Positions 8,479 to 63,548 are shown, counted from the stretch's first letter. The stretch is 64,000 bases of DNA from Patescibacteria group bacterium (GCA_019752595.1 JAIELV010000001.1:618394-682393); one strand, 5' to 3'. Translations and numbers: made by a program. Notes: generated by a model from the sequence alone, not told the origin.

Positions 8479-8494
8479 TGTTACCATGGTAACA
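8479..8494. promoter_or_regulatory. 16-bp perfect palindrome TGTTACCATGGTAACA (copy a)
   Basis: Lies in the convergent intergenic space between TrmB-1 and the ABC ATPase. A related copy sits at 19667-19682 in the YerC/sigma promoter region. Confidence 0.4.
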
Positions 8495-16143: not shown

Positions 16144-16144
16144 G

Positions 16145-16228
16145 GGAATCGGTCCTTACAGGACCAGTACGGGTTTCGCATTCACGTCGCTTTCGCTCGT
16201 TCATATGCTCAACCGCCTTCGATTCCCT
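16145..16228 (-). ncRNA. Conserved structured RNA-like element, copy A, embedded in a tRNA-Gly-derived pseudo-T-arm
   Basis: Outer stem GGGAATCG / CGATTCCC. Inner hairpin GGTCC-TTACA-GGACC. It shares a 62-nt core with copy B at 26525-26624 with only 5 substitutions, two of them compensatory. Strand is not established. Confidence 0.45.
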
Positions 16229-19666: not shown

Positions 19667-19682
19667 TGGTACCATGGTAACA
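19667..19682. promoter_or_regulatory. Palindrome TGGTACCATGGTAACA (copy b), abutting the -35 box of the yerC-like promoter
   Basis: Shares the ACCATGGTAACA core with copy a at 8479-8494. It is preceded by the tandem GTATCGTG GTATCGTG. Confidence 0.4.
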
Positions 19683-19684
19683 TG

Positions 19685-19713
19685 TTGACACGTAGAACCA
19701 TGTGCGATATAAT
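19685..19713 (+). promoter_or_regulatory. Consensus sigma70 promoter TTGACA-N17-TATAAT for the TrpR-like gene
   Basis: TTGACA at 19685-19690 and TATAAT at 19708-19713. Confidence 0.6.
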
Positions 19714-19719
19714 GAACGG

Positions 19720-20025
19720 GTGAAGAATAAAGTAAAAACCGACACCGAGCTGAACCGAAAGCGCATGGAGCGCCTGTATGATGCTCTGCTTTCACTTAAA
19801 ACCCGCGAAGAATCTGCTGCATTTTTGCGTGACTTGTGCACTGTCTCGGAACTTGAAGCACTTTCAGAGCGTTTGGCAATTGCTGAACGCGTGTCGAAAG
19901 ACGAATCGTATCTTTCTATTGCAAGCGATTTAGGAGCATCAACAACTACTGTTACTCGCGTAGCGCATTGGCTGAACCATGGAATGGGCGGCTACCGCGC
20001 GGTTTTAAATCGTTTGAAAAAATAA
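19720..20025 (+). CDS. TrpR-like protein, YerC/YecD family
   Basis: Aligns with Bacillus YerC across LYDALLSL...LRDLCTVSELEALSERLAIA...ASTTTVTRV. The GTG at 19720 lies 6 nt after the -10 box. Alternative starts are 19702 (ORF track) and the ATG at 19765. Confidence 0.7.
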   Translation: MKNKVKTDTELNRKRMERLYDALLSLKTREESAAFLRDLCTVSELEALSERLAIAERVSKDESYLSIASDLGASTTTVTRVAHWLNHGMGGYRAVLNRLKK

Positions 20026-24129: not shown

Positions 24130-25491
24130 TTAACTCCACCTTTTCACTATACGCTTAGTTTTTTCAGCGGCAACTCCTATGTAGGAAGCGGGGTTTTTGA
24201 GAATTCCTTTTTGCTTATCAGTCATTTTGTCCAAATACGGTTTCATTTCTGAATCGGCAAACGCAACGTCTTCGAGTGACTTCCCTTCTTTCTGCGCGCT
24301 GAGTGTGAGATTTCTAACTTTTTCGTGCGCATCGGGGTGCCCCATCGAGGCAAGCATGATGTACAAAGGCTCGGCCGCAATCATGCCTTTCTGCATCGCC
24401 ATATTTGCTTCAAGCCTCGGCTTGTCGACAGAAAGTTTCGCCATTGTTTTCGAAAGCCTATTTGCCATCGAAACGGTGTAGGCGATTGTCTCTCCATAGG
24501 TTCTGCCAGATGCAGAATTGGTCAAATCGCGCTGGTGTTCAGAGATCTGGTCCATGAATACTGTCACCATTCTCGGCACAATAATTTTCCAAAGGCTTTT
24601 TGCGTTCTCAAAGTTAATTGGATTTCGTTTCTGCGGCATCGTAGACGAGCCAACTTGTGACTTTTCAAACTCCTCCCCTACTTCTCCGATTTCTGTTCGC
24701 TGTAACTGACGCATGTCGTCTGAAAGTTGCGCCATTATTCCTGCCGCAATCGTTGTCTCCGCCAAAAGTCGAACCATTGGTTCAGCCTGCGTGACCTGTG
24801 TTGCATGCTCCACGGGCTCGAGATTCATTTCTGCCAAAACGTCTTTTTCGAAAGCTTCAGGGTCATCAAAGAAAAGCGATGATGCGTTGTATGCGCCAAC
24901 AGCGCCTGAAAACTTCCCTTTCATCTCTCCCGCAAGAGCTTCAAGTGCCACGATCGACTGCCCAAGGCGGCTGACATAGCCTGCAACAACGTAGCCGAAT
25001 GTAAGCGGGACCGCGTGCTGGCCATGCGTGCGCCCGACCTGCACCGTTTCTGCTTCCCTTTCCGCAATTCCTACAAGAATCTTCAAGAGTGATTTCAAAG
25101 ACGGCACGAGTGCTTTCAGTGTTGCGTCTTTAAATCGAGCCGCGTTTGCGGTATCAGAGATGTCGTAGCTGGTTGCGGTCATGTGGACGTAGGGCTTTGC
25201 TGCGTCCGAAACTTTCAAACGAATGACGTTTACCATTGCGCGGATATCGTGTTTCACCTTGTCTTCTTCTTCGTAGACTTCTGCGGGAGTAATCGTCTGT
25301 ACGGCGGATTCAATTTCTTTCAAAACGTCTGCTGAACAAATTTTTCTCTTATGAAGTGCTTTTACGAGCGCAAGTTCAACGCTGAGCTTGTATTTGAGGT
25401 ACGCATTATCTGAGAGGTACTTCGCAACCTCTTCATCCCAGTACCGATAATCAACAGGAGCGATACTATCAAACGCATTTGAAGGTCTCAT
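24130..25491 (-). CDS. purB: Adenylosuccinate lyase
   Basis: 453 aa with the fumarate-lyase signature GSSTMPQKRN. Confidence 0.93.
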   Translation of the reverse strand: MRPSNAFDSIAPVDYRYWDEEVAKYLSDNAYLKYKLSVELALVKALHKRKICSADVLKEIESAVQTITPAEVYEEEDKVKHDIRAMVNVIRLKVSDAAKPYVHMTATSYDISDTANAARFKDATLKALVPSLKSLLKILVGIAEREAETVQVGRTHGQHAVPLTFGYVVAGYVSRLGQSIVALEALAGEMKGKFSGAVGAYNASSLFFDDPEAFEKDVLAEMNLEPVEHATQVTQAEPMVRLLAETTIAAGIMAQLSDDMRQLQRTEIGEVGEEFEKSQVGSSTMPQKRNPINFENAKSLWKIIVPRMVTVFMDQISEHQRDLTNSASGRTYGETIAYTVSMANRLSKTMAKLSVDKPRLEANMAMQKGMIAAEPLYIMLASMGHPDAHEKVRNLTLSAQKEGKSLEDVAFADSEMKPYLDKMTDKQKGILKNPASYIGVAAEKTKRIVKRWS

Positions 25492-25519
25492 TACTAGTAT
25501 TTTATCACATCTACAGAAA

Positions 25520-25542
25520 TGTGCTATACTTAGTATAGCACA
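25520..25542. promoter_or_regulatory. 23-bp perfect palindrome TGTGCTATACTTAGTATAGCACA (copy 1), two face-to-face extended -10 boxes
   Basis: TGCTATACT is a TGn-TATACT element on both strands. Divergent purB and tRNA-Pro flank it. Confidence 0.5.
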
Positions 25543-25593
25543 TATTGTACTTTAGGTGAGAGCCGTGTAGGCATGCTATTCTCCTTCTTGTCG

Positions 25594-25664
25594 CGGGGTG
25601 TCGTATACCGGTAGTACGCTTGCTTTGGGAGCAAGATGACCGAGTTCGATTCTCGGCACCCCGA
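25594..25664 (+). tRNA. tRNA-Pro (anticodon UGG), no encoded CCA
   Basis: Manual fold of 71 nt with C1:G72, as in E. coli tRNA-Pro. Anticodon loop TTTGGGA, T-arm CCGAG-TTCGATT-CTCGG, discriminator A. Confidence 0.8.
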
Positions 25665-26051
25665 CTAGGACCCGAGAACGACGTTCTCCAAAAACCGCAC
25701 TTTTGCGGTTTTTGTTTTTTCGTCGAGATAGACAGCAATAACATCAAATTGCCAATCCCCGACGACATTCCTTTCCAATATGTAGCTTTCTATAGTCCTC
25801 AAAAGCCTTTTTATTTTTTGAGGGTGTACGTTTTCTTCGGGGCGATGCCTTTCTGAAACAGCACTCTCCCCCGTTTCCCATGAAACGGATTTAACTTCTA
25901 CAAAATGCACACACTCATCTTTTCGAGAGACTAAATCGATCTCACCGTAGGGTTTTCGGTAGTTTCTGGATAGGATTGTATGTCCTTTTGATACTAAGTA
26001 CTCTTCGGCGACCTTTTCACCAATACGACCTATTTCATTATGTTTAGCCAT
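25665..26051 (-). CDS. YraN-family (UPF0102) endonuclease-like protein
   Basis: 128 aa with the characteristic GEIDLV...FVEVK core. Confidence 0.7.
   Translation of the reverse strand: MAKHNEIGRIGEKVAEEYLVSKGHTILSRNYRKPYGEIDLVSRKDECVHFVEVKSVSWETGESAVSERHRPEENVHPQKIKRLLRTIESYILERNVVGDWQFDVIAVYLDEKTKTAKVRFLENVVLGS
25691..25716. terminator. Bidirectional terminator (tRNA-Pro / yraN-like gene)
   Basis: accgca-cttt-tgcggt followed by tttttg; the complement has its own T run. Confidence 0.7.
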
Positions 26052-26238
26052 ATTTTACTGTTTCACGTGAAACGTGTCTGAAAGCAAAAGTATGATAATA
26101 GCATTATTTAAAGCCATATTTTTAAGAAATTGCCTGTTTTTTGTGCCCTATATAAGTTGTCTTTTATACACATACACACAGGTTTGTCCACAGTTTTAGA
26201 CAATTTCACGTGAAACGCGTTTCTTATGAAACATGAGG

Positions 26239-26397
26239 CTATTTTTTATCTTCCCTGTTCTTTTTAGGCGTTTCAGCGTTGCACATGGAACAGTGTATCC
26301 AGACAGGAGGAACCCCGTATCCAGCATCTACAAAAAAGCCCCGATTACCTTTGCAGGCGGGGCAGTGATTTTTACCTTCTTTTGAGAGGAAGGACAT
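26239..26397 (-). CDS. Small C4 zinc-ribbon protein
   Basis: Manual translation gives MSFLSKEGKNHCPACKGNRGFFVDAGYGVPPVWIHCSMCNAETPKKNREDKK (52 aa). Two CxxC pairs are present. It is below the ORF-track size cutoff. Confidence 0.4.
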   Translation of the reverse strand: MSFLSKEGKNHCPACKGNRGFFVDAGYGVPPVWIHCSMCNAETPKKNREDKK

Positions 26398-26401
26398 TGT
26401 G

Positions 26402-26524: not shown

Positions 26525-26624
26525 TTTGTGCTCCCGGAGGGATTCGCTCCTTACAGGAGCAGTACAGGTTTCGTATTCACGTCGCTTACGCTCGTTCATA
26601 TACTCAACCTTTTCGAATCCCTCC
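26525..26624 (-). ncRNA. Conserved structured RNA-like element, copy B, embedded in a duplicated tRNA-Arg 3' end / T-arm
   Basis: Positions 26525-26543 exactly repeat the 3'-terminal 19 nt of the adjacent tRNA-Arg (26655-26673 in reverse-complement sense). Outer stem GGAGGGATTCG / CGAATCCCTCC. Inner hairpin CTCC-TTACA-GGAG. The core matches copy A. Confidence 0.45.
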
Positions 26625-29495: not shown

Positions 29496-29767
29496 TGAGT
29501 GAACATAGATTTTTCTGGGCAGATGCTCAAAGACTTGGCGCGGAAGCGGATGCTCGAGAGAGCGTACGTCGTGACGGGCGAGCTGTGTGGACGGGGATGG
29601 GGATAGGTGCTCTCGCAGGAGCGTTTGTTGACACTATTGCCGCAGCAACTGGACGTGATACGTACCCAATAGGAATTACCCTCGGCGCTACAGCGGGGGC
29701 ACTGACTCCTGGAGCGTACTCTCGCGTTAAAACTTTCGTCCGCGGACGCTCTTCCAGAGCCGACTAG
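29496..29767 (+). CDS. Small glycine-zipper membrane protein (hypothetical)
   Basis: About 90 aa from the ATG at 29496, with GxxxG-rich helices. Confidence 0.3.
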
Positions 29768-30480
29768 TCTCTCCAGAGAAGCTCAAAAATTGAGCGCATC
29801 ATCTGACTGAGTTCTTTATTTTCTATAACGACAACTGAAACATCGTCGCCAAGGGTAACCATGGCGATTTTTTGTTTCCAAATATACATGAGGGGCGAGA
29901 ACGGGAGAGGAGGCTCCACAAGCTTGCTTTGACGCAAATCTTCTGCGTCCCGAATTTGCCTTTCGCGAGCCTTCGGGGAATCACGAAAAATCCCCCTCAG
30001 AAAAATTCCTTTTTCTTTGCGTTTCTTTGTGAAGCGCGGGAAAAACTCTGGGAGATCTTTGAACAATTCTTCTGGAGAACCGATGGCAAACAACTCGTCT
30101 GCTTCTTCCAAAATATCGCCAGACACCCGAGCAAAACCGTCTTTGCCTTTGTGCATCTCTACTTTGGTCGAGCCGTCGCCTTTTTCGTAAAGCGCAAGGA
30201 GTGACGGCAAGACTCGTTCAATTGCATTTTTTCTTTCGAGAGCTAGCTCACGTAATACAGTGGGGTCATTTACTGAAAAATGCTTCCGCCCGCGTTTCTT
30301 ATATATATTTACGAGTCCTTTCTGAGACAGGCCTCGCAAGGCATCGTAGGCGGTTGATTTCGGAAGTCCTGATTTTTCTCCAACTTCTACACCGGAGGCA
30401 GACTTTAACTTTAAAAGCGCCACGAATACTGCAGATTCGTTTTGCGTAAGGCCAAATGTTTTCAATGCTTGAACTTGCAT
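29764..30480 (-). CDS. TrmB-family transcriptional regulator (paralog 3)
   Basis: 238 aa with an N-terminal wHTH and a C-terminal TrmB-like domain. It is diverged from paralogs 1 and 2. Confidence 0.7.
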   Translation of the reverse strand: MQVQALKTFGLTQNESAVFVALLKLKSASGVEVGEKSGLPKSTAYDALRGLSQKGLVNIYKKRGRKHFSVNDPTVLRELALERKNAIERVLPSLLALYEKGDGSTKVEMHKGKDGFARVSGDILEEADELFAIGSPEELFKDLPEFFPRFTKKRKEKGIFLRGIFRDSPKARERQIRDAEDLRQSKLVEPPLPFSPLMYIWKQKIAMVTLGDDVSVVVIENKELSQMMRSIFELLWRD

Positions 30481-30591: not shown

Positions 30592-31449
30592 TTGCAGAAT
30601 ACGACGCGTATGACTAGGATAGAAAAAGGTGTCCGCGGGAAATGGTCGCGATTGCGTAGCGGTTTAAGTCGCGAGGGGTGGAAAAAGAGGGTATTGAGAA
30701 GTATCGCAGAAAAAACCGTCAACACCGCTACGTATGAAAGCATCCCCTTGTGTGACCTCGTGGGCCAAAAACCTCTAGATGAGTACAACTTCATGCGACG
30801 CCTGAAAGAGGCGGGGTACCGCGACGCTGACCTAGCAAGCCCCTCAGACTGCGAGCAGGTATTCAACGCGGATAATCATTACAGAAGCGCGGAACTGCAG
30901 TTGCAGTTTTACGACGGCCGACGCCACCTATTCGTGAATACAAATCGTGGGGCAGGGAAACACGCAATGATTCATTCTGATGTGGACGGGATTTACCGAG
31001 GGGATATCCCGTATAAAAATCTAGGTAAGCATGTAACCAGAAGAGACCGATTGGTCATTCGTCCCCATGTGCGACGCGTAACACCGGAAGCAATCCGCAC
31101 ACTGCGAGAAACCATGCAAGGAAAAGTCCATAGAGGGGATGGCACGTACGACATGGAGACAAAAAGAATCAATTTGTTTAACAGTATTGCCAGCTACGTA
31201 CGACCTCTTATTGATGAATTTTCTACTGAAAACTGGACGAAGCATGAGCAAGCTTTGAGTGCGCTCATCGTGGGGCCCGAGGGCGAAAATATAAAAAAAT
31301 GGCAGGAACTTTTTAATGGCCTCTTAGTTGCTCGCACGGACGATGAATTAAATGTCATTTCAGAAACATTCAAAGCGATGCAACCTGAACTCAAAATGAT
31401 TGGCCAAAAAAGGAGAGAGTGGGATTCGGCGACGTACGAAGGAGACTAA
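30592..31449 (+). CDS. Hypothetical protein
   Basis: 285 aa with no recognised domain. It is convergent with the xerC-like gene and overlaps its 3' end by 4 nt. Confidence 0.45.
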   Translation: MQNTTRMTRIEKGVRGKWSRLRSGLSREGWKKRVLRSIAEKTVNTATYESIPLCDLVGQKPLDEYNFMRRLKEAGYRDADLASPSDCEQVFNADNHYRSAELQLQFYDGRRHLFVNTNRGAGKHAMIHSDVDGIYRGDIPYKNLGKHVTRRDRLVIRPHVRRVTPEAIRTLRETMQGKVHRGDGTYDMETKRINLFNSIASYVRPLIDEFSTENWTKHEQALSALIVGPEGENIKKWQELFNGLLVARTDDELNVISETFKAMQPELKMIGQKRREWDSATYEGD

Positions 31450-32408
31450 GTACGACGACGTTTGCCGTGGAACGTGTGATGAATGTCACGCAAATGTTTG
31501 TCGGTAACGTGTGTATAGATTTGTGTCGTTTGAATATTTGCATGGCCAAGGAGCGCCTGAACGGAGCGTAAATCAGCTCCGTTTTCTAATAGGTCAGTTG
31601 CAAACACGTGTCGCAACACGTGCGGCGTGACCTTTGAAGTAATACCCGCGCGCGCGGCGTAGGCTTTGAGCTTCAATTGCACGTCGCGCGGGCCGATGCG
31701 ATGTAGTTTTTTTGCAGAACGACCTTCAACAAACAACGCCTCTTCCATATCGTTCCGCGCTTTCAAATATTCCCGCACAGCCTTCTTTGCCCGCTCGGAA
31801 AGGAAAACCACGCGTACCTTTTCCCCCTTACCTCTTACGGAAAGCTCATCGCGTGTAAGGTCGATGTCGCTATTTAATGCGCACAGCTCGGAAACGCGCA
31901 GACCCGTTGAGAAAAGGAGTTCCAGCATCGCCCTGTCACGGAGTAGTTTCCGCTGTTTGTCGGGGTCAGATTCTTTTTTCAACGCTTCGCTCGGCGCACT
32001 CATTAGACGTTCAAGCTCAGCAACCGTAATAAGGTCGAGCGAGCGCTCGGCGACCTTCGCAAGTTCTATCTTTTCAGGTTGCAGCGTCTTGATGTCGCGT
32101 TTCGCCATGTATTTAAGGAACGCGCGCAGAGCGATGAGGTAAAAATTCTGCGTTTTCCTCTTCAGAGTGCCGTTGCCAGCGGGCCCGCCTGCCGGACGGG
32201 CAGGTTGACGATTGAGCCACAGACGAAATTCGCGAATGAGGGCGTCAGTAATGCCTGCGGGGGAGTCCGTTTTTGCAAATTGAAGAAATCGGGTAAGGTA
32301 GTGGTCGTAATTTTCGACCGTTTTTATGCTCCGACCCTTCGTTATTTCTATATATTCTAGAAATTCACGCTTCAGTTCAGCCAAAGATGCCATCCAGCCA
32401 GTATACAT
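31446..32408 (-). CDS. xerC: Tyrosine site-specific recombinase XerC/XerD
   Basis: 320 aa with an N-terminal SAM-like core-binding domain. The catalytic R...HxxR...Y context is HVLRHVFATDLL...IYTHV. Confidence 0.88.
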   Translation of the reverse strand: MYTGWMASLAELKREFLEYIEITKGRSIKTVENYDHYLTRFLQFAKTDSPAGITDALIREFRLWLNRQPARPAGGPAGNGTLKRKTQNFYLIALRAFLKYMAKRDIKTLQPEKIELAKVAERSLDLITVAELERLMSAPSEALKKESDPDKQRKLLRDRAMLELLFSTGLRVSELCALNSDIDLTRDELSVRGKGEKVRVVFLSERAKKAVREYLKARNDMEEALFVEGRSAKKLHRIGPRDVQLKLKAYAARAGITSKVTPHVLRHVFATDLLENGADLRSVQALLGHANIQTTQIYTHVTDKHLRDIHHTFHGKRRRT

Positions 32409-32439: not shown

Positions 32440-32462
32440 TGTGCTATACTAAGTATTGAACA
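32440..32462. promoter_or_regulatory. Palindrome copy 2 (TGTGCTATACTAAGTATTGAACA), one degenerate half-site
   Basis: Lies 32 nt upstream of the xerC ATG on the minus strand. rpsO is divergent. Confidence 0.4.
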
Positions 32463-32488: not shown

Positions 32489-32516
32489 TTGCAAATAAAG
32501 GTTTTTCTGATATAGT
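32489..32516 (+). promoter_or_regulatory. rpsO promoter TTGCAA-N16-TATAGT
   Basis: The -10 box ends 6 nt before the ATG. Confidence 0.5.
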
Positions 32517-32522
32517 GAGCAA

Positions 32523-32789
32523 ATGCTTACTAAAACGCAGAAAACACGGACGATGAAGGCCGTACAGAAGCACGACTCAGATACGGGCTCGGCATCAGTA
32601 CAAGTAGCCCTTTTGACGAAGCAAATTGGCGAATTGACCACCCATTTGAGAAAGCACACCAAGGATAAACACTCCCGCCGTGGCCTTTTGCAGATGGTTG
32701 CAAACCGCCGTTCACATTTGAAATATCTCGAAAAGTCCGACAAGAAGGAATACAACAAGGTCATCAAGTCTTTGGGCCTCAAAAAATAG
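32523..32789 (+). CDS. rpsO: 30S ribosomal protein S15
   Basis: 88 aa with the conserved S15 helices and LLQMVANRRSHLKYL. Confidence 0.93.
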   Translation: MLTKTQKTRTMKAVQKHDSDTGSASVQVALLTKQIGELTTHLRKHTKDKHSRRGLLQMVANRRSHLKYLEKSDKKEYNKVIKSLGLKK

Positions 32790-33343: not shown

Positions 33344-33979
33344 TTGCCGTCTTTATATAGGCGAGCGGACAAAAAATATTTTATGGCAGTAGTAAAACAC
33401 AGCGCCCAGCGTGTGGCGGTATTCATCGACACGCAAAATTTATATCACAGCGCTAAAAACCTGTACCGTGCGCGCGTTAATTTTGCAGGCGTTTTGAAGG
33501 AATCGGTTGCAGGCAGAATCCTCATTCGTGCGATGGCGTACGTTGTCACTACGGAATCAGGAGATGAGAAAGCATTTTTTGATGCACTGACGAAGATCGG
33601 CATTGAAACAAAAACAAAAGACCTCCAGATTTTCTATGGTGGCGCAAAGAAAGCCGACTGGGACGTTGGTATGGCGGTTGATGCGGTAAAGCTTGCACCA
33701 CGCTTGGATGCAGTCATTCTTGCGACAGGTGACGGCGATTTCGTTCCTTTGGTTGAATACCTCAAAAACAGCCACGGCATTCAGGTTGAAGTCATTGCCT
33801 TCGGAAAATCCGCATCGCAAAAACTGAAAGAAGTTGCCGATGATTTTATTGATATGTCGATTGATCCAAAGAAATTCCTTATTGGTAAGAACTTCTTTTC
33901 AGCTGCTGCTGAAGCAATAGGCGGAGAAAAGGATGAGCCTGAGATTGAAGGCGAGCCGAAAGTGGTCGGAGCGGACTAG
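33344..33979 (+). CDS. NYN-domain (LabA-like, PIN-fold) protein
   Basis: Core VAVFIDTQNLY...DWDVGMAVDAV...ILATGDGDFVPLV. The probable start is MAVVKH at 33383. Confidence 0.7.
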   Translation: MPSLYRRADKKYFMAVVKHSAQRVAVFIDTQNLYHSAKNLYRARVNFAGVLKESVAGRILIRAMAYVVTTESGDEKAFFDALTKIGIETKTKDLQIFYGGAKKADWDVGMAVDAVKLAPRLDAVILATGDGDFVPLVEYLKNSHGIQVEVIAFGKSASQKLKEVADDFIDMSIDPKKFLIGKNFFSAAAEAIGGEKDEPEIEGEPKVVGAD

Positions 33980-34740
33980 GGAGAAATAGATTGTTTCCAA
34001 AGGTACTCAAAAATACTTCGCTGTGTAGTGGTGATTGTGTCGCTTTCCAAAATTGAAACGAATATATTTTCACCAAGCACAAATTGATACAGCCGATTAC
34101 CTGCAATTGCCTGGTCGGCGTTGGTAACGATGAGACCTGCGGGCAAGAAGCGCGCTTCTGTTGAGGTAATTTTCTTTTCGGAAAGGGAAGCGATGTACTT
34201 TTCTCCCGCATTATTTTTTTGAATAAGTTCACGCGCAACGGGACGATTCAACGAGTGTATCGCTTGTACGTACTCCATAAGCACTTTTGGAAACTCACGC
34301 TCAACTGATTCGATATCCGACATCCAGAGCACTTCTTTTTTATCGCGCACTGCTTCTAGTATCTCGTCGTACGTTCGCTTCACACCCTCGATACCTTCAT
34401 ACAGCTGCGCGCGCGGTTTCTTTGTCTGCCCGTAATGCAGAGCAATCAGTTCAGGCATCAACTCTTCTACCTGACTCCTATTAAGCTCGGCAACTTGTAG
34501 CACTCTCCGCGGATGTACAGCCGTATATGCCTTTCTTTTTCCTTTTGATACCTCGGAAAGAAAGCCGCGAAGTACTAACCCCTGAGTCAAATTGTGCGTA
34601 ATGGTCCATTTCAGCCTAGCCTCACGGTTTATGTCGCTAAGAGTGCTTTCGCCCAAGCGAAGCGCTGCAAGATAAATCGCCGCCTCCTTCTGAGAGAGCC
34701 CGATTGCCCTAAGTGCGAGAGGGAGTCGTTCCTCTTTCAT
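33976..34740 (-). CDS. TrmB-family transcriptional regulator (paralog 4)
   Basis: 254 aa with an N-terminal wHTH (LGESTLSDINREARLKWTITHNLTQGLVLRGFL) and a TrmB-type C-domain. Confidence 0.7.
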   Translation of the reverse strand: MKEERLPLALRAIGLSQKEAAIYLAALRLGESTLSDINREARLKWTITHNLTQGLVLRGFLSEVSKGKRKAYTAVHPRRVLQVAELNRSQVEELMPELIALHYGQTKKPRAQLYEGIEGVKRTYDEILEAVRDKKEVLWMSDIESVEREFPKVLMEYVQAIHSLNRPVARELIQKNNAGEKYIASLSEKKITSTEARFLPAGLIVTNADQAIAGNRLYQFVLGENIFVSILESDTITTTQRSIFEYLWKQSISP

Positions 34741-34890
34741 GCCTATAATTTATCATAAAAAATGATACTTATGGGCAAAGATTCAAAATGTGTTTATAAA
34801 TATAGGTTTTCTGAAGTAAAAAATATCCTTTTGTGTGAAAATATTTGACTTACGCGTACAATTACTGCATAGAAGATAACAAAAATAACT

Positions 34891-35237: not shown

Positions 35238-35243
35238 CGAACC

Positions 35244-35275
35244 AAAACCGCGCCTTTAAAAAAGGCGCGGTTTTG
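35244..35275. terminator. Bidirectional intrinsic terminator
   Basis: ccgcgcc-tttaaaaaa-ggcgcgg followed by tttt. Confidence 0.8.
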
Positions 35276-35376
35276 CTATAGTGGCTCTATTAGTAAACGC
35301 GAGGTTAGCAGATACAGAGGAGGGAAGATCCCGCCCTGAATTCTGAGAATCTCGCATTAATAGAGAGAGATTCATA

Positions 35377-37587
35377 ATGAAACAGAAATCATTCTCCGCG
35401 CAAATTGGCGGAAGGACACTGACCGCTGAATTTACTGACCTTGCGGAGCAGGCAAGTGGTTCCGTTATTGTTCGCTACGGCGACACGGCGATTCTCGTCA
35501 CCGCGGTGATGGGATCAAAAGATAAAGAGATGGATTATTTCCCGCTCACCGTTGAATTCGAAGAAAGATTTTACGCAGCAGGAAGAATTCTTGGTTCACG
35601 ATTCGTACGACGTGAGGGAAGACCGGCAGACAGCGCGATTCTTTCGGGACGCATCGTCGACCGCACTATCCGTCCACTGTTTAACAACAAAATGCGAAAG
35701 GATGTGCAAGTTATTGCAACAGTACTTTCGATTGCAGAAGACGACCCCGATGTCTTGGGTGTTATTGGTGCGTCGCTCGCTTTGGGCACTTCACACATTC
35801 CATGGAAAGGCCCCGTGTCCGCAGTTCGTATTGGAAAGAAAAAAGGCTCAGACACTTTCCAAATTAATCCCACCTACGCAGAAAGAAATTCTCCTGACGC
35901 GGAATTGGACTTACTGGTCTGCGGAAGGGACGGCACGATCACAATGATTGAAGTCGGCGCGAAAGAAGTGACCGAAGCTGTCATGGAATCGGCGTTTGCT
36001 GAAGCAATGAAACAGCTTGATGAAGTACAGGCGTTCCAGAAAAAAGTTATTGCGGAAATTGGGAAACAAAAAAAAGAATTTACTCCCGTTGAGATGAATG
36101 CTTCAATTCCAGAAGGATTTGCAGAGTTTGAGGCAGGATTTGAATCTGCAATTTTCTCTGGCACTTCAGGAAAAGAATCGATTTATGCCTTGAAGGAAAA
36201 ATTCCTTGCCAAAATAAAACTGGCGACACCTGAGTTGGTGAAAATGGCGGATGATTATTTTGAAGACCGCGTGGAAGCACTTATGGACAAGCGCGCCATT
36301 GAAGACAAGAAGCGCGTTGACGGGAGAAAACTTGATGAAATTCGCCCGCTGTATGCAAAGGCAGGTGGTATGTCGCCGATTCTTCACGGCTCAGGCATTT
36401 TCTACCGAGGGGAGACGCACGTATTTTCCGCACTCACCTTGGGCGGACCCGAAGATTCGCAGATTGTTGACTCAATAGAGGAGCGCGAAGAAAAGAAACG
36501 CTTCATGCACCACTACAATTTCCCGCCATTTTCGGTCGGAGAAACAGGACGTGTGGGTGGTTTGAACCGTCGCATGATTGGACACGGAGCGCTTGCTGAA
36601 AAAGCACTCTCTGCTGTCATTCCTGAAAAAGAAGTGTTCCCGTACACCATTCGTTTGGTTTCGGAAGCATTCTCTTCAAATGGTTCTACCTCTATGGCAT
36701 CGGTCTGTGCATCGACATTGGCGATGATGGATGGAGGGGTGCCAATAAAAGCTCCTGTCGCGGGTATCGCAATGGGAGTCATTTACGAAACACCTGAACG
36801 CTATGCAATTCTCACAGACATTCAAGGACCTGAGGACCACTATGGGGACATGGATTTTAAAGTTGCGGGAACAAAAGACGGTATTACCGCAATACAGCTC
36901 GACGTCAAAGTTGAAGGTGTGCCGATGAAAATTCTCGCAGAGGCGTTACACCAGGCAAAAACCGCCCGAATGCAAATTCTTGACGTCATAACAAAAGAAA
37001 TCGCAACGCCTCGTGCCGACCTTTCTCCTCGCGCACCAAAAATAGTAACGTTGACCGTTCCTGTCGACATGATCGGTATGGTCATCGGCCCTGGCGGAAA
37101 GAACATTAAGAAAATACAAGAAGAAACAGGTGTGACTGGCATTACGATTGAAGACGACGGTTCGATATTTGTCACAGGAACAGCAGATTCACCTGAAAAA
37201 GCTGCTGAAATAATTCGTCAAATGACAAAAGTGTGGAAGGCGGGTGAAGTAGCAGAAGGCCCTGTAACGCGCCTTATGAACTTTGGTGCATTCGTAAATA
37301 TTGGCGGTAAAACTGAAGGATTGGTACATGTGTCTGAAATCGCACCCTTCCGAATTGCAACCGTTGATGAAGCACTCAAAGTCGGCGACATCGTGAAAGT
37401 GGTGGTGAAAGAAATTGATGATCAAGGCCGTGTGAATCTCTCAATAAAAATGATTGACCCTGAGTTTGCAACACGCAAAGGGCTGAAACCCAGTGAAGGA
37501 ATGCCACCTTCAGCCGACCGCGGGGGTTACAATGACAGAAATGGCGGAAGACGAAATCAAGATTCCGGAGGCGGACACCGTTGGTGA
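35377..37587 (+). CDS. pnp: Polyribonucleotide nucleotidyltransferase (PNPase)
   Basis: 736 aa with two RNase PH domains, KH and S1 domains, and a Gly/Arg-rich C-terminal tail. Confidence 0.95.
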   Translation: MKQKSFSAQIGGRTLTAEFTDLAEQASGSVIVRYGDTAILVTAVMGSKDKEMDYFPLTVEFEERFYAAGRILGSRFVRREGRPADSAILSGRIVDRTIRPLFNNKMRKDVQVIATVLSIAEDDPDVLGVIGASLALGTSHIPWKGPVSAVRIGKKKGSDTFQINPTYAERNSPDAELDLLVCGRDGTITMIEVGAKEVTEAVMESAFAEAMKQLDEVQAFQKKVIAEIGKQKKEFTPVEMNASIPEGFAEFEAGFESAIFSGTSGKESIYALKEKFLAKIKLATPELVKMADDYFEDRVEALMDKRAIEDKKRVDGRKLDEIRPLYAKAGGMSPILHGSGIFYRGETHVFSALTLGGPEDSQIVDSIEEREEKKRFMHHYNFPPFSVGETGRVGGLNRRMIGHGALAEKALSAVIPEKEVFPYTIRLVSEAFSSNGSTSMASVCASTLAMMDGGVPIKAPVAGIAMGVIYETPERYAILTDIQGPEDHYGDMDFKVAGTKDGITAIQLDVKVEGVPMKILAEALHQAKTARMQILDVITKEIATPRADLSPRAPKIVTLTVPVDMIGMVIGPGGKNIKKIQEETGVTGITIEDDGSIFVTGTADSPEKAAEIIRQMTKVWKAGEVAEGPVTRLMNFGAFVNIGGKTEGLVHVSEIAPFRIATVDEALKVGDIVKVVVKEIDDQGRVNLSIKMIDPEFATRKGLKPSEGMPPSADRGGYNDRNGGRRNQDSGGGHRW

Positions 37588-41100: not shown

Positions 41101-41418
41101 GTGCTCAGGGTGTACAACCACCGTATGAAGTGGGGTAGGAGAGGACCACATAAAGCCCGTGCGGACGATGCAACTGCTATATCTCAAGATGTTTTTGAGG
41201 TCATAAAAAAGATTCCTGGCGGGGCTGTACAGCGAAAAATTAGAGAGCTTGGGGAAGAGCGTGTTCGCGACTATTGGATGAGGATGCGTCTTTATAAAAC
41301 AGGAGACCCGCGATACCCGCTCCCGCCAAAGAGCGAAAGACGGCATTTTTGGAGACCGAGAATTCAAAACCAAAACACGGTTATGGGATTTGAGGGAGCT
41401 GAAAGAGAAACTGCCTAG
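41101..41418 (+). CDS. Hypothetical basic protein
   Basis: ORF of up to 105 aa, Arg/Trp-rich. Strand assignment is uncertain, since an antisense ORF at 41077..41373 also exists. Confidence 0.25.
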   Translation: MLRVYNHRMKWGRRGPHKARADDATAISQDVFEVIKKIPGGAVQRKIRELGEERVRDYWMRMRLYKTGDPRYPLPPKSERRHFWRPRIQNQNTVMGFEGAERETA

Positions 41419-42419
41419 AACGGATTCGTAGCCCCGCGAACTTCGAAGTGTAAATGCGCACCTGTTGAGCGTCCTGTATTTCCTGATGCGCCGACTGCTT
41501 GACCTTGCGTCACAGTTTGACCAGTTGAAACAAACACTTGTGAGAGGTGTCCATAGACCGTTTGTGTGCCATTCGGATGCTGGATCACTATGTACTGACC
41601 ATACCCGCCGTTCCAGCCTGAGCCGCGCGCGATAATAACAGTGCCTGATGCTGAAGCCATCACCGTCGTTCCGACTGGAACACCAATATCGATACCGTTA
41701 TAGCCGTGAATGCCTTGTGTTTTTATACCTCCTGCAATCGGACGCATGAAGTAGCCTGCAATCACTGGCCCGCCCGCGCTTCTTACCGTCTTTGTGCCCG
41801 AGGAGGTGACTGTTGTCGATACTTCAACACCATGCGGAATCACAATCGTGTCGCCAACTGCTAGCTTTGCGTTGTCAGGTAAATTATTGAAATCAAGCAC
41901 CTCTTCAAGATTGCCTTTATATTTCTTGACTATAGACGCAATCGTTTCACCCTTTGCCACTGTGTGCTGAACTCCTGAGACGGGGAGAATAACAAGCGTG
42001 TCACCTGGATGAATATCTTTACTGCCATTCAGGTCGTTCGCCCACAGAATAGTGTTTGCAGATACATTAAAAAGTTTCGCGATACCAGAAAGCGTATCGC
42101 CGTTTCGTACGACATAGATTGAAATCTGATTTGAAGAAGCTGACTGATCTTCGATGTCCAAAAGAGTTCCTTCGGGGCCTGTTTCAGGTAAAAGTGCGAC
42201 ACCGCCAACAATGGTTATATCGCCACCCCCGCGCCGTGTGGGGTCTATATTTTTAGCTGCCTGAAGGGCAGGAGTGTGAACGCTTGGAACCGCGCGACGG
42301 GTAACCTCTGCAGCTTTCGCAACAGAATCGTCCTCATGAGAGAAGGGAAGATACAGGGCAAGGGCGGGGAGGGCGATGTTAAACGCCAAAAGAAAAGCCC
42401 CCGCGATAACCGCTTTCAA
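41415..42419 (-). CDS. LysM-domain peptidase M23 (cell-wall endopeptidase)
   Basis: 334 aa with a signal/anchor, two LysM repeats (YVVRNGDTLSGIAKLF and HTVAKGETIASIVKKY) and an M23 domain with HxH in GAHLHFE. Confidence 0.88.
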   Translation of the reverse strand: MKAVIAGAFLLAFNIALPALALYLPFSHEDDSVAKAAEVTRRAVPSVHTPALQAAKNIDPTRRGGGDITIVGGVALLPETGPEGTLLDIEDQSASSNQISIYVVRNGDTLSGIAKLFNVSANTILWANDLNGSKDIHPGDTLVILPVSGVQHTVAKGETIASIVKKYKGNLEEVLDFNNLPDNAKLAVGDTIVIPHGVEVSTTVTSSGTKTVRSAGGPVIAGYFMRPIAGGIKTQGIHGYNGIDIGVPVGTTVMASASGTVIIARGSGWNGGYGQYIVIQHPNGTQTVYGHLSQVFVSTGQTVTQGQAVGASGNTGRSTGAHLHFEVRGATNPF

Positions 42420-42659
42420 CCATTTTTTTGTTGCCGGGCGCAGAGTATGTGTCGTGCCGCCTGGTGCTGTGGAATCCTTTTTTATAACGTTTTCTCCTCG
42501 AGTGCTGTGCAGATTTTCAGTAAAAATGGCTCTACTGAGCCAATTTATGGCGCTTTTCGCTTAGGTATATATCCACTATACCCGAGGGAGGGGGGTAGTC
42601 AACCAGTAAAAACATGCCGAAGTGGAGACAGAAAAGTCATATTTTAAGCCACCAATCTC

Positions 42660-42682
42660 TGTGCTATACTAAGTATAGCACA
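42660..42682. promoter_or_regulatory. Palindrome copy 3, TGTGCTATACTAAGTATAGCACA (perfect)
   Basis: Lies 37 nt upstream of the uvrD/pcrA ATG. A second TATAGT sits at 42703-42708. Confidence 0.5.
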
Positions 42683-42719
42683 TTATGGGCAAAATTTTCA
42701 TAGGGTATAGTACTGAGGA

Positions 42720-44648
42720 ATGCTGCCTGAAAACTCATTGAACGACGCTCAAAAAAAGGCAGTTCTCCATAAAAAAGGGGCACTCCTTATTCTCGCGGGG
42801 GCGGGAGCAGGCAAAACGAGAGTTATCACCCACAGAATTGCGGAATTAATCCGAAGCGGGATAAACCCTGGGGCAATTCTTGCGGTTACTTTTACTAACA
42901 AAGCGGCGAGCGAGATGCGCTCTAGGGTTTTGAAGCTAATTTCCGAAGATTTATCCCTTTCGCCCTACGACACCCCAAAAACACTCCCCTATATAGGTAC
43001 GTTCCATGCGGTTTCTCTGGAAATTATTAAGACATTCCACGAAAAGGCAGGACTCCCGCGCCGATTCTCAATATTCGACCGCTCCGACTCTGTACGTGCA
43101 TTGAAAGAAGCGATCTCTGAAGCTGGTTTTGATCCGAAACAACTTGAGCCCCGAAGGGTACTTTCAATTATGGGGCGCCACAAAGGTAACGCGGTTGACC
43201 TTGATGCATTCCGTGAGCGCTACGTGCGTTCATACATAGATGAAGCGGTTGCAGAAGTGTGGGAGAGGTATGAAAAAATTCTTGCAAAAGAAAAAGCGCT
43301 TGATTTTGATGACATTCTTTTGCGTGCATACCACTTAGTGGCGCGAAATCCTGAAGTACGAGAGTATTTTGAGCGCGCGTGGCAGTACGTACATGTGGAC
43401 GAGTACCAAGACACAAACCGTGTGCAGTACGAACTCGTGCGCCTCTTGTCGAAAAAAAGCGGGAACATTGCAGCGGTGGGAGACATTGACCAAAATATTT
43501 ACAGCTGGCGAGGTGCTTCGATTGAATTCATTATGAATTTTGAACAGGATTTCCCCGACGCGGAAATTGTGGTCTTGGCAGAAAACTATCGCTCAACAAA
43601 AACAATACTCGCAGCGGCAAATGATGCCATCGAAAAAAATATTCAACGTAAAGAAAAAGAGTTGTACACAAAAAACGCTGATGGGGAGAAAATAACGGTT
43701 GCAGGTTTTTATGACGAAACAGAAGAAGCGCGCTATGTTGCAAAAGAAGCAAAGTATTTATCGAACTACGGAGTGAAGCATGAAAACATCGCGGTCTTGT
43801 ATCGTGCAAACTTTCAATCACGCATTTTGGAAGAGGCGTTCCTCAAAGAAAATGTTCCCTATCAAGTATTGGGCACACGATTTTTTGAACGCAAAGAAGT
43901 AAAAGACGCTGTTTCGTATATTAAGCTTGCACTAAATCCTGACTCGAGTGCGGATTTTGCGCGCGCCATCGGCACACCTTCTCGAGGCATAGGAAAAGTG
44001 ACACTCGTCAAAGTGGTAAACGGAAAAGAAGAAGAACTACCCGCATCAGCGCGCAAAAAAATTCAGGATTTCCGCACGCTTCTTGCTCGCATACAAAATA
44101 AAATTGAGACCGCACAAACTTCTGAAGCAATTAAATTTGCGCTCCATGAAAGCGGACTATGGAATTTATACGCCCATGGTACAAGCGAAGACACGGAACG
44201 TTTGGAAAACTTAAAGGAGCTCGTTACGGTTGCCACAAAATATGACCACCTCGCGGCTCCAGAAGGAATTGAAAAATTAATTGAAGAAGCAGCGCTCCAA
44301 TCAGACCAAGACGAGCTCAAAGAAAAAAAGGTGGGTGTGAAATTGATGACTATTCACGCAGCAAAGGGGCTTGAATTTGAACGTGTGTTCATTACGGGGC
44401 TTGAAGAAGGGCTGTTCCCGCATGAGCGCGACGAAGCCGAAGGTGTGGATCATGAAGAAGAGCGTAGATTGTTTTATGTCGCACTCACGCGTGCGGAGAA
44501 AAAAGTATATTTAACGCATGCGGCAACGCGCAGAATTTTTGGTACTCGTTCAATCAATACGCCGTCAGAGTTTGTAGTCGAGCTTGATCCTGCGTTGGTA
44601 GAAGTCGTACCATTTGTAGGAAACTACCATGAAGAAACAATTGACTAG
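42720..44648 (+). CDS. uvrD: ATP-dependent DNA helicase PcrA/UvrD
   Basis: 642 aa with the SF1 motifs GAGAGKT, DEYQDTN and the others. Confidence 0.93.
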   Translation: MLPENSLNDAQKKAVLHKKGALLILAGAGAGKTRVITHRIAELIRSGINPGAILAVTFTNKAASEMRSRVLKLISEDLSLSPYDTPKTLPYIGTFHAVSLEIIKTFHEKAGLPRRFSIFDRSDSVRALKEAISEAGFDPKQLEPRRVLSIMGRHKGNAVDLDAFRERYVRSYIDEAVAEVWERYEKILAKEKALDFDDILLRAYHLVARNPEVREYFERAWQYVHVDEYQDTNRVQYELVRLLSKKSGNIAAVGDIDQNIYSWRGASIEFIMNFEQDFPDAEIVVLAENYRSTKTILAAANDAIEKNIQRKEKELYTKNADGEKITVAGFYDETEEARYVAKEAKYLSNYGVKHENIAVLYRANFQSRILEEAFLKENVPYQVLGTRFFERKEVKDAVSYIKLALNPDSSADFARAIGTPSRGIGKVTLVKVVNGKEEELPASARKKIQDFRTLLARIQNKIETAQTSEAIKFALHESGLWNLYAHGTSEDTERLENLKELVTVATKYDHLAAPEGIEKLIEEAALQSDQDELKEKKVGVKLMTIHAAKGLEFERVFITGLEEGLFPHERDEAEGVDHEEERRLFYVALTRAEKKVYLTHAATRRIFGTRSINTPSEFVVELDPALVEVVPFVGNYHEETID

Positions 44649-50024: not shown

Positions 50025-50114
50025 AATACTGGAACGTCGTGCATATCTAAAGAGTTATTCTCAAAAAAAACAAAAAACCTGCTCGACGGGTAACAACGGG
50101 GATATAATGCTCAC

Positions 50115-55804: not shown

Positions 55805-55822
55805 ACGGGGTAAAATACATAT

Positions 55823-56164
55823 ATGTTTTCATTTACACCCGAAGAAATAGCGGGCGCGAAATCAAGCGCCCCGAAAGTAATCACTGATTTTCTAGCATCG
55901 GCTGATTTCAAAAAAGAAATCTTCGCAATCAGTAAACAGCACACACTGAATTTACAGGGGATTGCAGAACTAAGCGACATTGTCACTTATATGCTCCTTG
56001 GGCTCATCCCGCAACATGAATTTGCAGGATACATACATTCTTCCCATATGCACCTCAGTCCTGAGGGCCAACGCATGCTTTTAAGCGAAGTTGATGCGAA
56101 GATTTTTAGCGAAATAAAAAGAAGACTCCAATCAGATACCACACCGAGAACTGAACAAGAGTAG
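55823..56164 (+). CDS. Hypothetical protein, paralogous to the N-domain of the preceding gene
   Basis: 113 aa. Confidence 0.45.
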   Translation: MFSFTPEEIAGAKSSAPKVITDFLASADFKKEIFAISKQHTLNLQGIAELSDIVTYMLLGLIPQHEFAGYIHSSHMHLSPEGQRMLLSEVDAKIFSEIKRRLQSDTTPRTEQE

Positions 56165-62830: not shown

Positions 62831-63548
62831 TGTGCATTTTGCGGACAAACAGCTCCTGGCCGATTGAGAAAGTATTGCTCACCACGAAGTAAAGTGCAAT
62901 AGAGGCCGAGGTAGCGTAGGCAACAATACCCAGAAGAACGGGGAAAACATACTGCATTTGCAAACTCATACTTCTCTGCAAATCTTCGGAAAAAGACGGC
63001 TCAGAACCTGCCTTTTTTTCAGCTACGGGGGGCATCATGAGCTTCGCAAAGACAAACTGTGTGACTGCGACAATGAGCGCAAGGAGGATGCTCTTTTCTG
63101 AAAGATCCAAAAGCCCAAGGAAGATGAGGGTGGTTTCTGTTGGTACAGATATGAACGAGTAGAGGATAGCGGGGTCAAACGATACAACCTTGCTTTCATT
63201 CTGAAGAACCAAGTAAAGCCCGATAATAACGGGGAGTTGAATAAGGATTAGAAAAAAGCTCGCAAAAGGATTAATTTTGTGTTCTTTAAAGAGCGCCATC
63301 ATTTTTTTAGCGAGCTCTTCTTTGTTTTCTTTATACTTTTCCCTCATCTCCTTTAAGAGAGGGTCGATTTTTCGCATGGTCATCTGCGTTTTTATTGCAG
63401 TCCATGAAATAGGGAAGAGGGCGAGGCGCACCAAAATAGTTACCCCGACTATTGCAAGGCCTATGTCTCCACCAGGAATGAGATTAACGAAAAAAGCGAG
63501 CGCGTTGTAAATCGGCTCGTACACCACTACGTTGAACAAATCTGCCAT
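62799..63548 (-). CDS. yidC: Membrane protein insertase YidC (short form)
   Basis: 249 aa with the conserved YidC/Oxa1 TM core. Confidence 0.9.
   Translation of the reverse strand: MADLFNVVVYEPIYNALAFFVNLIPGGDIGLAIVGVTILVRLALFPISWTAIKTQMTMRKIDPLLKEMREKYKENKEELAKKMMALFKEHKINPFASFFLILIQLPVIIGLYLVLQNESKVVSFDPAILYSFISVPTETTLIFLGLLDLSEKSILLALIVAVTQFVFAKLMMPPVAEKKAGSEPSFSEDLQRSMSLQMQYVFPVLLGIVAYATSASIALYFVVSNTFSIGQELFVRKMHNEKRSDNTNA

Follow-up and report, generated by a model that had tools for sequence, protein, structure and literature searches.

A 23-bp promoter-like palindrome at gene boundaries in a narrow clade of Patescibacteria: a possible REP-like repeat

Introduction

Can a palindrome that reads as two promoters placed back to back be kept for some reason other than promoting transcription? 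The question is posed by a 64,000-nt stretch (hereafter the window) of the genome of a Patescibacteria group bacterium (GCA_019752595.1, JAIELV010000001.1:618394-682393), in which the 23-mer TGTGCTATACTWAGTATAGCACA recurs three times, each time between divergently oriented genes. A sequence-only reading had proposed that its two halves are outward-facing extended -10 promoters or, alternatively, that the whole is the operator of a dimeric global regulator, perhaps one that responds to DNA damage. Patescibacteria genomes are regarded as streamlined and repeat-poor, and their transcription signals are almost unstudied; our search of the literature found no description of the motif, or of repetitive extragenic palindromic (REP)-like repeats in Patescibacteria.

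Overall, the answer we favour, and hold tentatively, is that the 23-mer is a REP-like, lineage-restricted, copied, dyad-symmetric intergenic repeat at the transcription-unit boundaries of a narrow Patescibacteria clade. The core of the element extends to about 25-29 bp with its A/T flanks, and comparison among relatives suggests that what has been maintained is the dyad symmetry together with the outer half-sites, GTGCTATA-N5-TATAGCAC, and not promoter competence. The arms mimic the extended -10 of the lineage, and RNA polymerase may therefore also bind the element and fire outwards, plausibly as a side-property or exaptation rather than as the reason for its conservation. Our reading covers 64 kb of an 831-kb genome, set against DNA from relatives and large sequence collections, and proceeds throughout by sequence comparison and prediction.

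A palindrome built from two promoter look-alikes

The three copies proposed earlier are all present. A pattern search tolerating up to three mismatches returned two perfect copies in the window (at 25520 and 42660), one with two mismatches (at 32440) and no other, and 100 dinucleotide-preserving shuffles of the window held no match to the 23-mer. Gene calls likewise bear out the divergent pair assigned to each copy (Table 1). The density is three per 64 kb, from which a genome-wide number follows by extrapolation only.

Five of the six arms are TGTGCTATACT, and these satisfy the extended -10 pattern (TG at -15/-14, TAnnnT, -11A and -7T) as matches to TRTG-n-TATACT. At copy 1 the two hexamers (25525-30 and 25532-37) are adjacent without overlapping and would direct divergent starts 12 bp apart. 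In a consensus scan the arms at copies 1 and 3 came out as promoter-like, with a TG upstream; the same scan scored copy 1 as terminator-like. To this extent, the case for a compact bidirectional promoter stands: the sequence match and the predicted starts are there. In its fuller form, this alternative holds that two outward TGTGcTATACT units 1 bp apart, starting transcription about 12 bp apart, provide the flanking genes with a second, upstream promoter, and that the unit may have spread as a "mobile promoter". The exactness of the arms favours it, as do the divergent setting of all three window copies and the use of extended -10 promoters elsewhere in the lineage (TTGCTATAGT before pnp, TGCTATTCT before tRNA-Pro, and TGCTATAGT before pcrA in the relatives L029 and L030). 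Pseudo-symmetric bidirectional promoters are, moreover, an established class (PMC10268837, PMC12825309). According to PMC10268837, their divergent starts lie 7-25 bp apart and arise from a single near-symmetric -10; the common form, with starts 18 bp apart and -7T and -11A reciprocally paired, is not matched by the 23-mer. Nor does the arm ever stand alone: all five matches to the 9-mer TGNTATACT in the window fall within palindromes, and TGNTATAAT has no occurrence there. For these reasons, and for others given below, we consider it rather unlikely that the element is first and foremost a promoter.

Copies 1 and 3 also fold, into predicted hairpins of 10-11 bp with RNA stabilities of -14.5 to -16.2 kcal/mol (z about -4) and DNA stabilities of -8.3 to -9.5 kcal/mol; individually, copy 1 gives -16.2 and -15.7 kcal/mol as RNA (z -4.6 and -4.3) and -9.5 kcal/mol as DNA, and copy 3 gives -14.5 and -16.0 kcal/mol as RNA. 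The dyad of copy 1 reaches one base further on each side (25519-25543, ATGTGC...GCACAT), with AAA 5' of the core. Copy 2 forms no stable hairpin (RNA -5.6 and -7.6 kcal/mol, z about 0; DNA -2.8 kcal/mol). Its "degenerate" arm, TATTGAACA, is still kept in the L028 genome as TGTGCTATATTGGATATTGAACA, and the variant arm TGTTCAATACT is seen again in L032, at another locus.

A narrow distribution and rapid turnover

Scans of large collections, in which exact core matches only were registered, found the 18-base core at 18 loci in 185,579 genomes (one per species), six of them in a single groundwater metagenome-assembled genome (MAG), CAYHUW01. All six of these scanned loci have TGTG at the left end, and one has GCACT in place of GCACA at the right. 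Matches outside CAYHUW01 are single, lack the TG/CA ends and are about as many as chance would give (roughly nine by our estimate), which leads us to reject a widespread motif; several of those outside the clade sit in ordinary TTGACA-17-TATACT promoters of Chloroflexota or Firmicutes. The locus L004, in an unrelated Parcubacteria MAG, bears on the promoter alternative and counts in its favour: a 19-bp core lies there 10 nt from a Shine-Dalgarno sequence and ATG, leaving no room for another promoter, and is probably the sole one. A metagenome scan with a 20-base core gave five loci, four of them from the organism of CAYHUW01. The scanned viral contigs contained no copy, and a phage origin was rejected on that count.

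YchF of CAYHUW01 is 96% identical to that of the window genome, which makes CAYHUW01 a sister genome and not an independent lineage. Comparison of CAYHUW01 loci with the window by tblastx and tblastn (by tblastn also with the L024-L031 loci) detected no genes in common. Orthologous loci of relatives were obtained via PcrA, YchF and PurB homologues, and among them the element is confined to relatives with a PcrA identity of about 81% or more (L024/L025, L026/L027, L028/L034 and L035); the corresponding intergenic regions of L029, L030 and L031 (70-73% PcrA identity) lack it. At the orthologues of copy 3, for example, it is unchanged in L024/L025, carries three changes in L026/L027 and two in L028, and is missing from the last three relatives.

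Within the clade, individual copies come and go. The purB copy is identical at 23 of 23 positions in L035 (PurB 93% identical) though the tRNA-side flank has diverged, and is absent in L034 and L036 (PurB 84-85%). The copy upstream of ychF is present in CAYHUW01 and missing from L032 (YchF 93% identical), where the downstream copy is degraded by five changes beside an intact -35 box; between L007 and L032 the ychF-upstream regions have diverged too far for a clean insertion boundary to be visible. Upstream of pnp, L028 has the palindrome at the very spot that is taken up in the window, L029, L030 and L031 by a GC-rich terminator joined to the pnp promoter; at the site downstream of ychF, CAYHUW01 and L032 carry the palindrome and L033 a GC-rich terminator. 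Presence and absence at the purB, pnp-upstream and ychF-upstream sites are found among genomes 84-96% identical in the adjacent protein, and a perfect member where outgroups differ implies copying, an origin by point mutation being unlikely.

Two of these regions hold further features. The tRNA-Pro/purB gap of the L028 genome (L034 9790-9960) carries a direct duplication of about 70 nt where the window has copy 1, which includes both the promoter block of tRNA-Pro and a fragment resembling a tRNA 3' end (TCGGGGTGCC…). The pnp upstream region (window 35243-35380 and its equivalents in L028-L031) has a strong terminator hairpin fused to the promoter (…GGCGCGGTTTTGCTATAGT), L028 being the exception at the palindrome; the pnp leader of about 95 nt (GATACAGAGGAGGGAAGATCCCGCCCTGAATTCTG…) is conserved in all relatives and is presumably autoregulatory.

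Copies at gene boundaries of every orientation

All of the approximately 11 clade loci are intergenic. Three or four are divergent, five or six tandem and one convergent, and with contexts so mixed neither a pure promoter nor a pure terminator accounts for all of them. CAYHUW01 has seven copies, six of which sit 0-12 nt past a stop codon in tandem or convergent settings. The palindrome follows the stop of uvrB by 2 nt, with uvrA next; that of an M50 peptidase gene by 1 nt, with rpsL next; that of an S41 peptidase gene by 5 nt, 38 nt ahead of rplI; that of nth by 1 nt, 25 nt ahead of a HAD hydrolase gene; and that of ychF by 12 nt, with a small gene next. The convergent copy lies between the stops of orn (0 nt) and of a 183-aa open reading frame (ORF) annotated in public records (1 nt), so the full set of gaps reads 0, 1, 1, 1, 2, 5 and 12 nt, of which the 0 and the first 1 are the two sides of that copy. 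The seventh copy stands ahead of ychF, 38 nt short of the start codon, and about 1.15 kb separates it from the copy at the other end of that gene. At 10 of the 11 loci a promoter is found within about 60 bp, the distance from the palindrome to the next -10 hexamer running from about 14 to 58 nt. The neighbours (purB, tRNA-Pro, xerC, rpsO, M23, pcrA, pnp, uvrA, rplI, rpsL, ychF, orn and HAD) belong mostly to translation, RNA turnover and housekeeping, and no regulator gene adjoins a copy at the loci examined.

The copies that abut stop codons are awkward for a bidirectional promoter, since one arm (both, at the convergent site) would then fire antisense into a gene; in its favour, the intact arm at asymmetric sites tends to point toward the gene that is expressed, namely rpsO in the case of copy 2 and the downstream gene in that of L007b. 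The same copies invite a different explanation, wherein the element is a plain bidirectional intrinsic terminator and the identity of its copies reflects shared ancestry only. It has a hairpin with A and T flanks, ordinary terminators fill the same slot in relatives at two loci, and the terminator-like score of copy 1 fits. We nonetheless regard this explanation as very improbable. The divergent loci are promoter regions without incoming transcription, copy 2 does not fold, and half of the tandem sites have weak U-runs; what terminators conserve is structure rather than 22 particular bases, and the real terminators of the window are a different, GC-rich family. The after-gene position expected of a terminator is found in CAYHUW01 and at the L028 pnp site, not at the three window copies.

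The flanking genes have promoters of their own

A proximal promoter of its own can be predicted for each of the six genes that flank the window copies, mostly in leaderless arrangement, and these promoters are conserved in relatives (Table 1). That of purB reads TGTGATAAAAT in L035 and TGTTAAACT and TGATAAACT in L034 and L036, respectively, and the tRNA-Pro promoter block GAGAATAGCA (reverse complement) is kept in L034 and L035. The xerC-like gene of the L028 genome (L034, gene at 4064) likewise has TATACT, 7 nt from its ATG, and rpsO has TTGCAA...TAAAGT in L028, again 6 nt ahead of the ATG, with a similar TTGCAA block in L029. The pcrA promoter cGGGGTATAGT is kept in L024, L026 and L028, its place being taken by the TGCTATAGT already mentioned in L029/L030 and by GGTATAGT in L031; the M23 promoter block GTCAACC...CACTATAC is kept in L024, L026, L028 and L031, and L029 has a variant. 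The predicted starts lie 39 (purB), 58 (tRNA-Pro), 58 (xerC), 72 (rpsO), 47 (pcrA) and 103 bp (M23) downstream of the palindrome centre, and in pcrA orthologues the gap between palindrome and -10 is not constant, going from 23 to 31-36 nt. Since the genes have conserved promoters of their own and the gap varies, they do not need the palindrome as a promoter, and its position relative to their promoters is not fixed. The sequence-only reading had also placed starts from the arms 30-55 nt upstream of the flanking start codons. For a start 7 nt past TATACT the distances are 34 nt (purB), 57 nt (tRNA-Pro), 37 or 52 nt (xerC), 66 nt (rpsO), 43 nt (pcrA) and 246 nt (M23), so that the range fits some of the genes and others fall outside it.

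Table 1. Palindrome copies, flanking genes and the predicted promoters of those genes (window coordinates)
Feature	Coordinates	Strand	Remarks
Palindrome copy 1, TGTGCTATACTTAGTATAGCACA	25520..25542	.	perfect, centre T; purB / tRNA-Pro gap
Palindrome copy 2, TGTGCTATACTAAGTATTGAACA	32440..32462	.	left arm perfect, right arm AGTATTGAACA with 2 mismatches; xerC-like / rpsO gap
Palindrome copy 3, TGTGCTATACTAAGTATAGCACA	42660..42682	.	perfect, centre A; M23 peptidase / pcrA gap
purB	24130-25491	minus	divergent with tRNA-Pro
tRNA-Pro	25594-25665	plus	divergent with purB
XerC/D-type recombinase gene	31446-32408	minus	divergent with rpsO
rpsO	32523-32789	plus	divergent with xerC-like gene
M23/LysM peptidase gene	41415-42419	minus	divergent with pcrA/uvrD
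pcrA/uvrD	42720-44648	plus	divergent with M23/LysM peptidase gene
purB promoter, TGTGaTAAAAT	25499..25509	-	hexamer 7 nt from ATG at 25491; leaderless or 1-nt leader
tRNA-Pro promoter, extended -10 TGcTATTCT (TGCTATTCT)	25574..25582	+	11 nt from tRNA 5' end
xerC-like gene promoter, -10 TATACT	32400..32405	-	6 nt from in-frame ATG at 32393; leaderless
rpsO promoter, TTGCAA-16-TATAGT	32489..32516	+	ATG (32523) 6 nt past hexamer; leaderless
pcrA promoter, GGGTATAGT (GGGGTATAGT)	42703..42711	+	8 nt from ATG at 42720
M23 peptidase promoter, TTGACT-16-TATAGT	42575..42602	-	leader of about 150 nt

More generally, a TAnnnT hexamer stands 6-9 nt ahead of the start codon in 16 of 63 long ORFs (about 22 counting alternative starts), which implies leaderless mRNAs, and Shine-Dalgarno use is almost nil in the window genome. 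Examples of this arrangement lie at 50103-50117, 55811-55825, 63548-63560 (minus strand) and 32511-32525. A recurrent class of promoter replaces the -35 box with a G-run directly ahead of the -10 (GGGG-TAnnnT). The leader of about 150 nt of the M23/LysM gene (42420-42570) contains blocks kept in relatives and has no Rfam match at the gathering threshold; it is possibly an uncharacterised cis-regulatory RNA.

Symmetry, rather than promoter competence, appears to be maintained

Conservation and covariation were read from an alignment of 18 copies. The spacing of the arms is 11+1+11 in all 18, and at nine of the roughly 11 loci at least one genome matches the consensus at every one of the 22 specified core positions; L007a and L007b are each off at one. 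The outer GTGCTATA and TATAGCAC hardly vary; the variable part is the central 5 bp, where the -7 T of each arm lies. A and T flanks are frequent, with at least three T past the stem at about half of the sites.

The most telling variants are those of the L028 genome, whose copies are TGTGCTATATC-T-AGTATAGCACA, TGTGCTATATT-G-GATATTGAACA and AGTGCTATATC-C-GATATAGCACT. Four of the six arms have become TATATC or AATATC, losing the -7 T and keeping the dyad symmetry. The -10 hexamers read at leaderless distance in that genome all end in T, with no TAnnnC among them, so these arms are poor -10 elements. The copy found in L028 alone, upstream of pnp, is a perfect 27-bp palindrome, AAAGTGCTATATCCGATATAGCACTTT, of this same -7-defective type. 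L026 is the counterexample, and a point for the promoter alternative, in that both arms stay -10-compatible (TGtTATACT, TACACT) after three substitutions.

Changes in the arms tend to be paired. Covariation scores 0.140, compared with 0.089 for shuffles, of which 2 in 500 reached the observed value, with 85.5% of cells paired and both-side changes at pairs (6,30), (7,29) and (16,20), although the signal comes from few events in related sequences. A covariance model run over 289 kb of fetched DNA found one extra copy, TGTGCGACATTGAATGTTGCACA in L031 (E = 2e-4), with compensated arms and outside the training set. Two independent promoters would need neither the fixed 1-bp spacing nor symmetric covariation. 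The L028 arms, the mixed contexts and the promoters that the genes already have argue that promoter activity is not the conserved trait; as a conserved function, the promoter of the earlier proposal finds no support in these observations, nor in the copies abutting stops and the variable centre, and the arms that match an extended -10 in the window fail to do so, four times in six, in L028.

The diverged member in L031 (1504-1580) is followed 27 nt on by a canonical terminator, and if its arm fires the transcript would be about 55 nt long.

Discussion

Overall, we believe that these observations are best, if tentatively, accommodated by a copied repeat whose symmetry is what matters. The element would be read as a symmetric structure, in one of two ways that depend on where it lies. 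For example, consider a copy that follows a gene: it would be transcribed and form a 10-11 bp hairpin with A and U runs, acting as a modest two-way terminator or as a 3'-end hairpin, or else stabilising the 3' end. A copy between divergent promoters would instead work as DNA, as an AT-centred cruciform or as the target of a symmetric protein, and would separate the two units. In shape, the A/T flanks agree with the AAAA-hairpin-TTTT of ordinary terminators in this genome, although those belong to the separate GC-rich family. The copy pattern, the contexts, the changes that keep the symmetry and the genes' own promoters are what the sequences show; a copying mechanism, any action as terminator or insulator, and any protein partner are our inference.

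At the same time, several observations weigh against this interpretation. The window copies lie between divergent promoters with no known transcription across them, so a role as RNA terminator cannot explain these three, and the form of copy 2 is conserved despite the lack of a stable fold. At about half of the tandem sites the U-run past the hairpin is short or missing, and the L031 palindrome, having a normal terminator just beyond it, is not a simple substitute for one. A dimeric protein of changed specificity would also produce lineage-wide symmetric shifts. No transposase or other copying agent was identified, and none is present among the window ORFs scanned; of the REP hallmarks we saw neither a 5' GTAG nor inverted REPIN doublets, nor evidence for hundreds of copies. 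Lastly, a perfect TRTGnTATACT in both arms is unlikely to be accidental, and the promoter role may exceed that of a side-property.

Some of these points lead to a further alternative, in which the element is the operator of a dimeric protein, either a global regulator or an architectural or roadblock protein, that binds the 8-bp half-sites GTGCTATA and TATAGCAC across a 5-bp spacer and represses, activates or insulates. Conserved half-sites around a variable 5-bp centre are the classic operator pattern, and the frequent AAA...TTT flanks, the intergenic location of all copies and the proximity of promoters agree with it. So does the parallel shift from CT to TC at inner arm positions in all three L028 copies, which fits a reader with changed specificity, and so does the retention of the copy 2 sequence without hairpin stability; several winged-helix regulators are encoded, with two TrmB-family genes in the window. 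Against it, the geometry relative to the -10 varies both across loci and among pcrA orthologues, one copy lies between convergent stops with no promoter near, and the neighbouring genes are heterogeneous, none of them a regulator. Near-perfect identity over 22 positions with gain and loss of whole sites is unusual for the sites of a regulon, and at the flank position (6,30) changes that preserve complementarity occur inside one genome. On balance, we regard an operator as a possible but unlikely explanation. A generic dimeric-protein operator is possible; its narrower version, a DNA-damage regulator, finds no footing in the mixed gene set, the lack of an adjoining regulator and the mismatch to the LexA box types considered.

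A more complicated model might combine termination and initiation in a self-propagating "transcription reset" cassette of 23-29 bp, wherein the RNA hairpin would stop incoming transcription and the extended -10 arms would restart it outwards. Because the starts would lie inside the palindrome, new transcripts would not contain the full hairpin, and one module could serve divergent, tandem and convergent boundaries alike. We consider this model quite improbable.

A copied palindrome that mimics both the strongest promoter type and the terminator layout of its host would offer a compact and testable model for how such signals originate and spread, and for how neighbouring units are kept apart in a 0.8-Mb genome with mostly leaderless mRNAs. 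It would also bear on whether REP-like mobile DNA exists in this radiation; should the element instead prove to be an operator, its sites would be among the first candidate global regulons in these organisms. There is also a caution for annotation, in that a perfect match to a promoter consensus is no proof of a working promoter.

Other candidates and other features of the window

Several named systems were considered and rejected as identities for the 23-mer. The CRP operator is AAATGTGA-N6-TCACATTT (TGTGA-N6-TCACA); the 23-mer is TGTGC-N13-GCACA, with TGTG and CACA 15 bp apart, and is not a CRP/FNR site. LexA boxes (CTGT-N8-ACAG, GAAC-N4-GTTC and others) lie upstream of lexA, recA and repair genes. 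The 23-mer has neither of these two box patterns, only pcrA, uvrA and perhaps xerC are repair-related among some 13 neighbours, and no lexA or recA adjoins a copy, so a LexA/SOS operator was dismissed. A dif site occurs once per replicon, near the terminus, as 28 bp with two 11-bp arms around a 6-8 bp centre. Three copies within 17 kb beside an origin-like region, with arms 1 bp apart, have the wrong geometry and copy number for Xer dif, and the xerC neighbour therefore looks coincidental. The ParB centromere site parS, a 16-mer of TGTTNCACGTGNAACA type near the replication origin, bears no sequence relation to the 23-mer, and the window has canonical parS-like sites at other positions. The four tRNAs of the window are its only Rfam matches at gathering thresholds, and the palindrome thus falls in no known RNA family.

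The parS-like sites just mentioned are at 26059-26074 (TGTTTCACGTGAAACG) and 26202-26217 (AATTTCACGTGAAACG), with DnaA-box-like 9-mers at 26164 and 26184, in a gene-free gap of 350 bp (26052-26400) at the cumulative GC skew minimum of the window; no dnaA was seen nearby. This gap is likely an origin-proximal region and possibly oriC. Beside the TATAAT at 34744, upstream of the first TrmB-family gene (33976-34740, minus strand), the palindrome TTATCAT-N5-ATGATA (34744-34768) overlaps the predicted -10 of that gene. It resembles the archaeal TrmBL1 motif, TATCAC-N5-GTGATA, and is probably an autoregulatory operator. The second TrmB-family gene is at 29764-30480. Another repeated palindrome, GTTACCATGGTAAC / GGTACCATGGTAAC, occurs at 8480-8493 and 19668-19681 within blocks of 33-39 nt that are 77-85% alike; the latter copy is just upstream of a TTGACA -35 box, with a gene start near 19702-19720, and together they have the look of an ordinary operator pair. 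Next to tRNA genes, 16144-16214 and 26539-26609 are the two copies, 90% identical, of a 71-nt repeat that starts with a tRNA-like T-arm/acceptor (GGGATTCG...); neither ARAGORN nor Rfam calls it, and its candidates are a fragment of a tRNA, a tRNA of unusual form and a small RNA. Finally, a 1560-aa ORF (50115-54797) without an NCBIfam match heads a plus-strand block that extends to about 62300 and whose counterparts in relatives have PrgI and TraC-like matches, probably a Patescibacteria type IV secretion/conjugation-like locus.

Comparison with known systems

Operators of dimeric regulators resemble the 23-mer in their dyad, and in having conserved half-sites around a variable centre. The AAATGTG...CACATTT ends are CRP-like, and the TACT-W-AGTA centre is like that of TrmB-type operators (TACT-Nx-AGTA). 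Unlike such operators, the 23-mer keeps no constant distance from promoters, has no linked regulator gene, and shows an identity between sites far above that of usual regulons. Bidirectional intrinsic terminators share with it the A-tract/hairpin/T-tract layout, which is also that of the genome's GC-rich terminators, and, in CAYHUW01, the post-stop position; the stem of the 23-mer, however, is AT-rich with four G-C pairs, its U-runs are short or absent, the sequence itself is conserved, and it also sits where there is nothing to terminate.

The pseudo-symmetric bidirectional promoters of the Grainger laboratory (Warman et al. 2021) share with the 23-mer their -10-like hexamers on both strands; the window copies sit between divergent genes, and the starts predicted here fall within the range of 7-25 bp. 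In the common known form the hexamers overlap, whereas in the 23-mer two full extended -10 elements stand side by side, separated by 1 bp and with predicted starts about 12 bp from each other; theirs is not a fixed 23-bp cassette at many loci, and the promoter competence of the 23-mer is not conserved in L028.

REP elements are mobilised by RAYT (REP-associated tyrosine) transposases, and REPINs are inverted doublets of them (PMC3337134). The 23-mer differs from both in being a perfect palindrome of odd length, centred on A or T and without orientation, with AAA/TTT flanks and no GTAG. In REPs it is the 5' GTAG-type head beside an imperfect hairpin that gives orientation. The copies of the 23-mer that were seen are also singletons of low abundance, divergent promoter regions make up a third of the loci, the arms look like promoters, and no RAYT is found among the window ORFs scanned. 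What the 23-mer and the REP/REPIN elements have in common is that they are short extragenic palindromes in many near-identical copies, intergenic and often just past stop codons, lineage-specific and gained or lost between close relatives, with hairpin potential and possible side-effects on termination.

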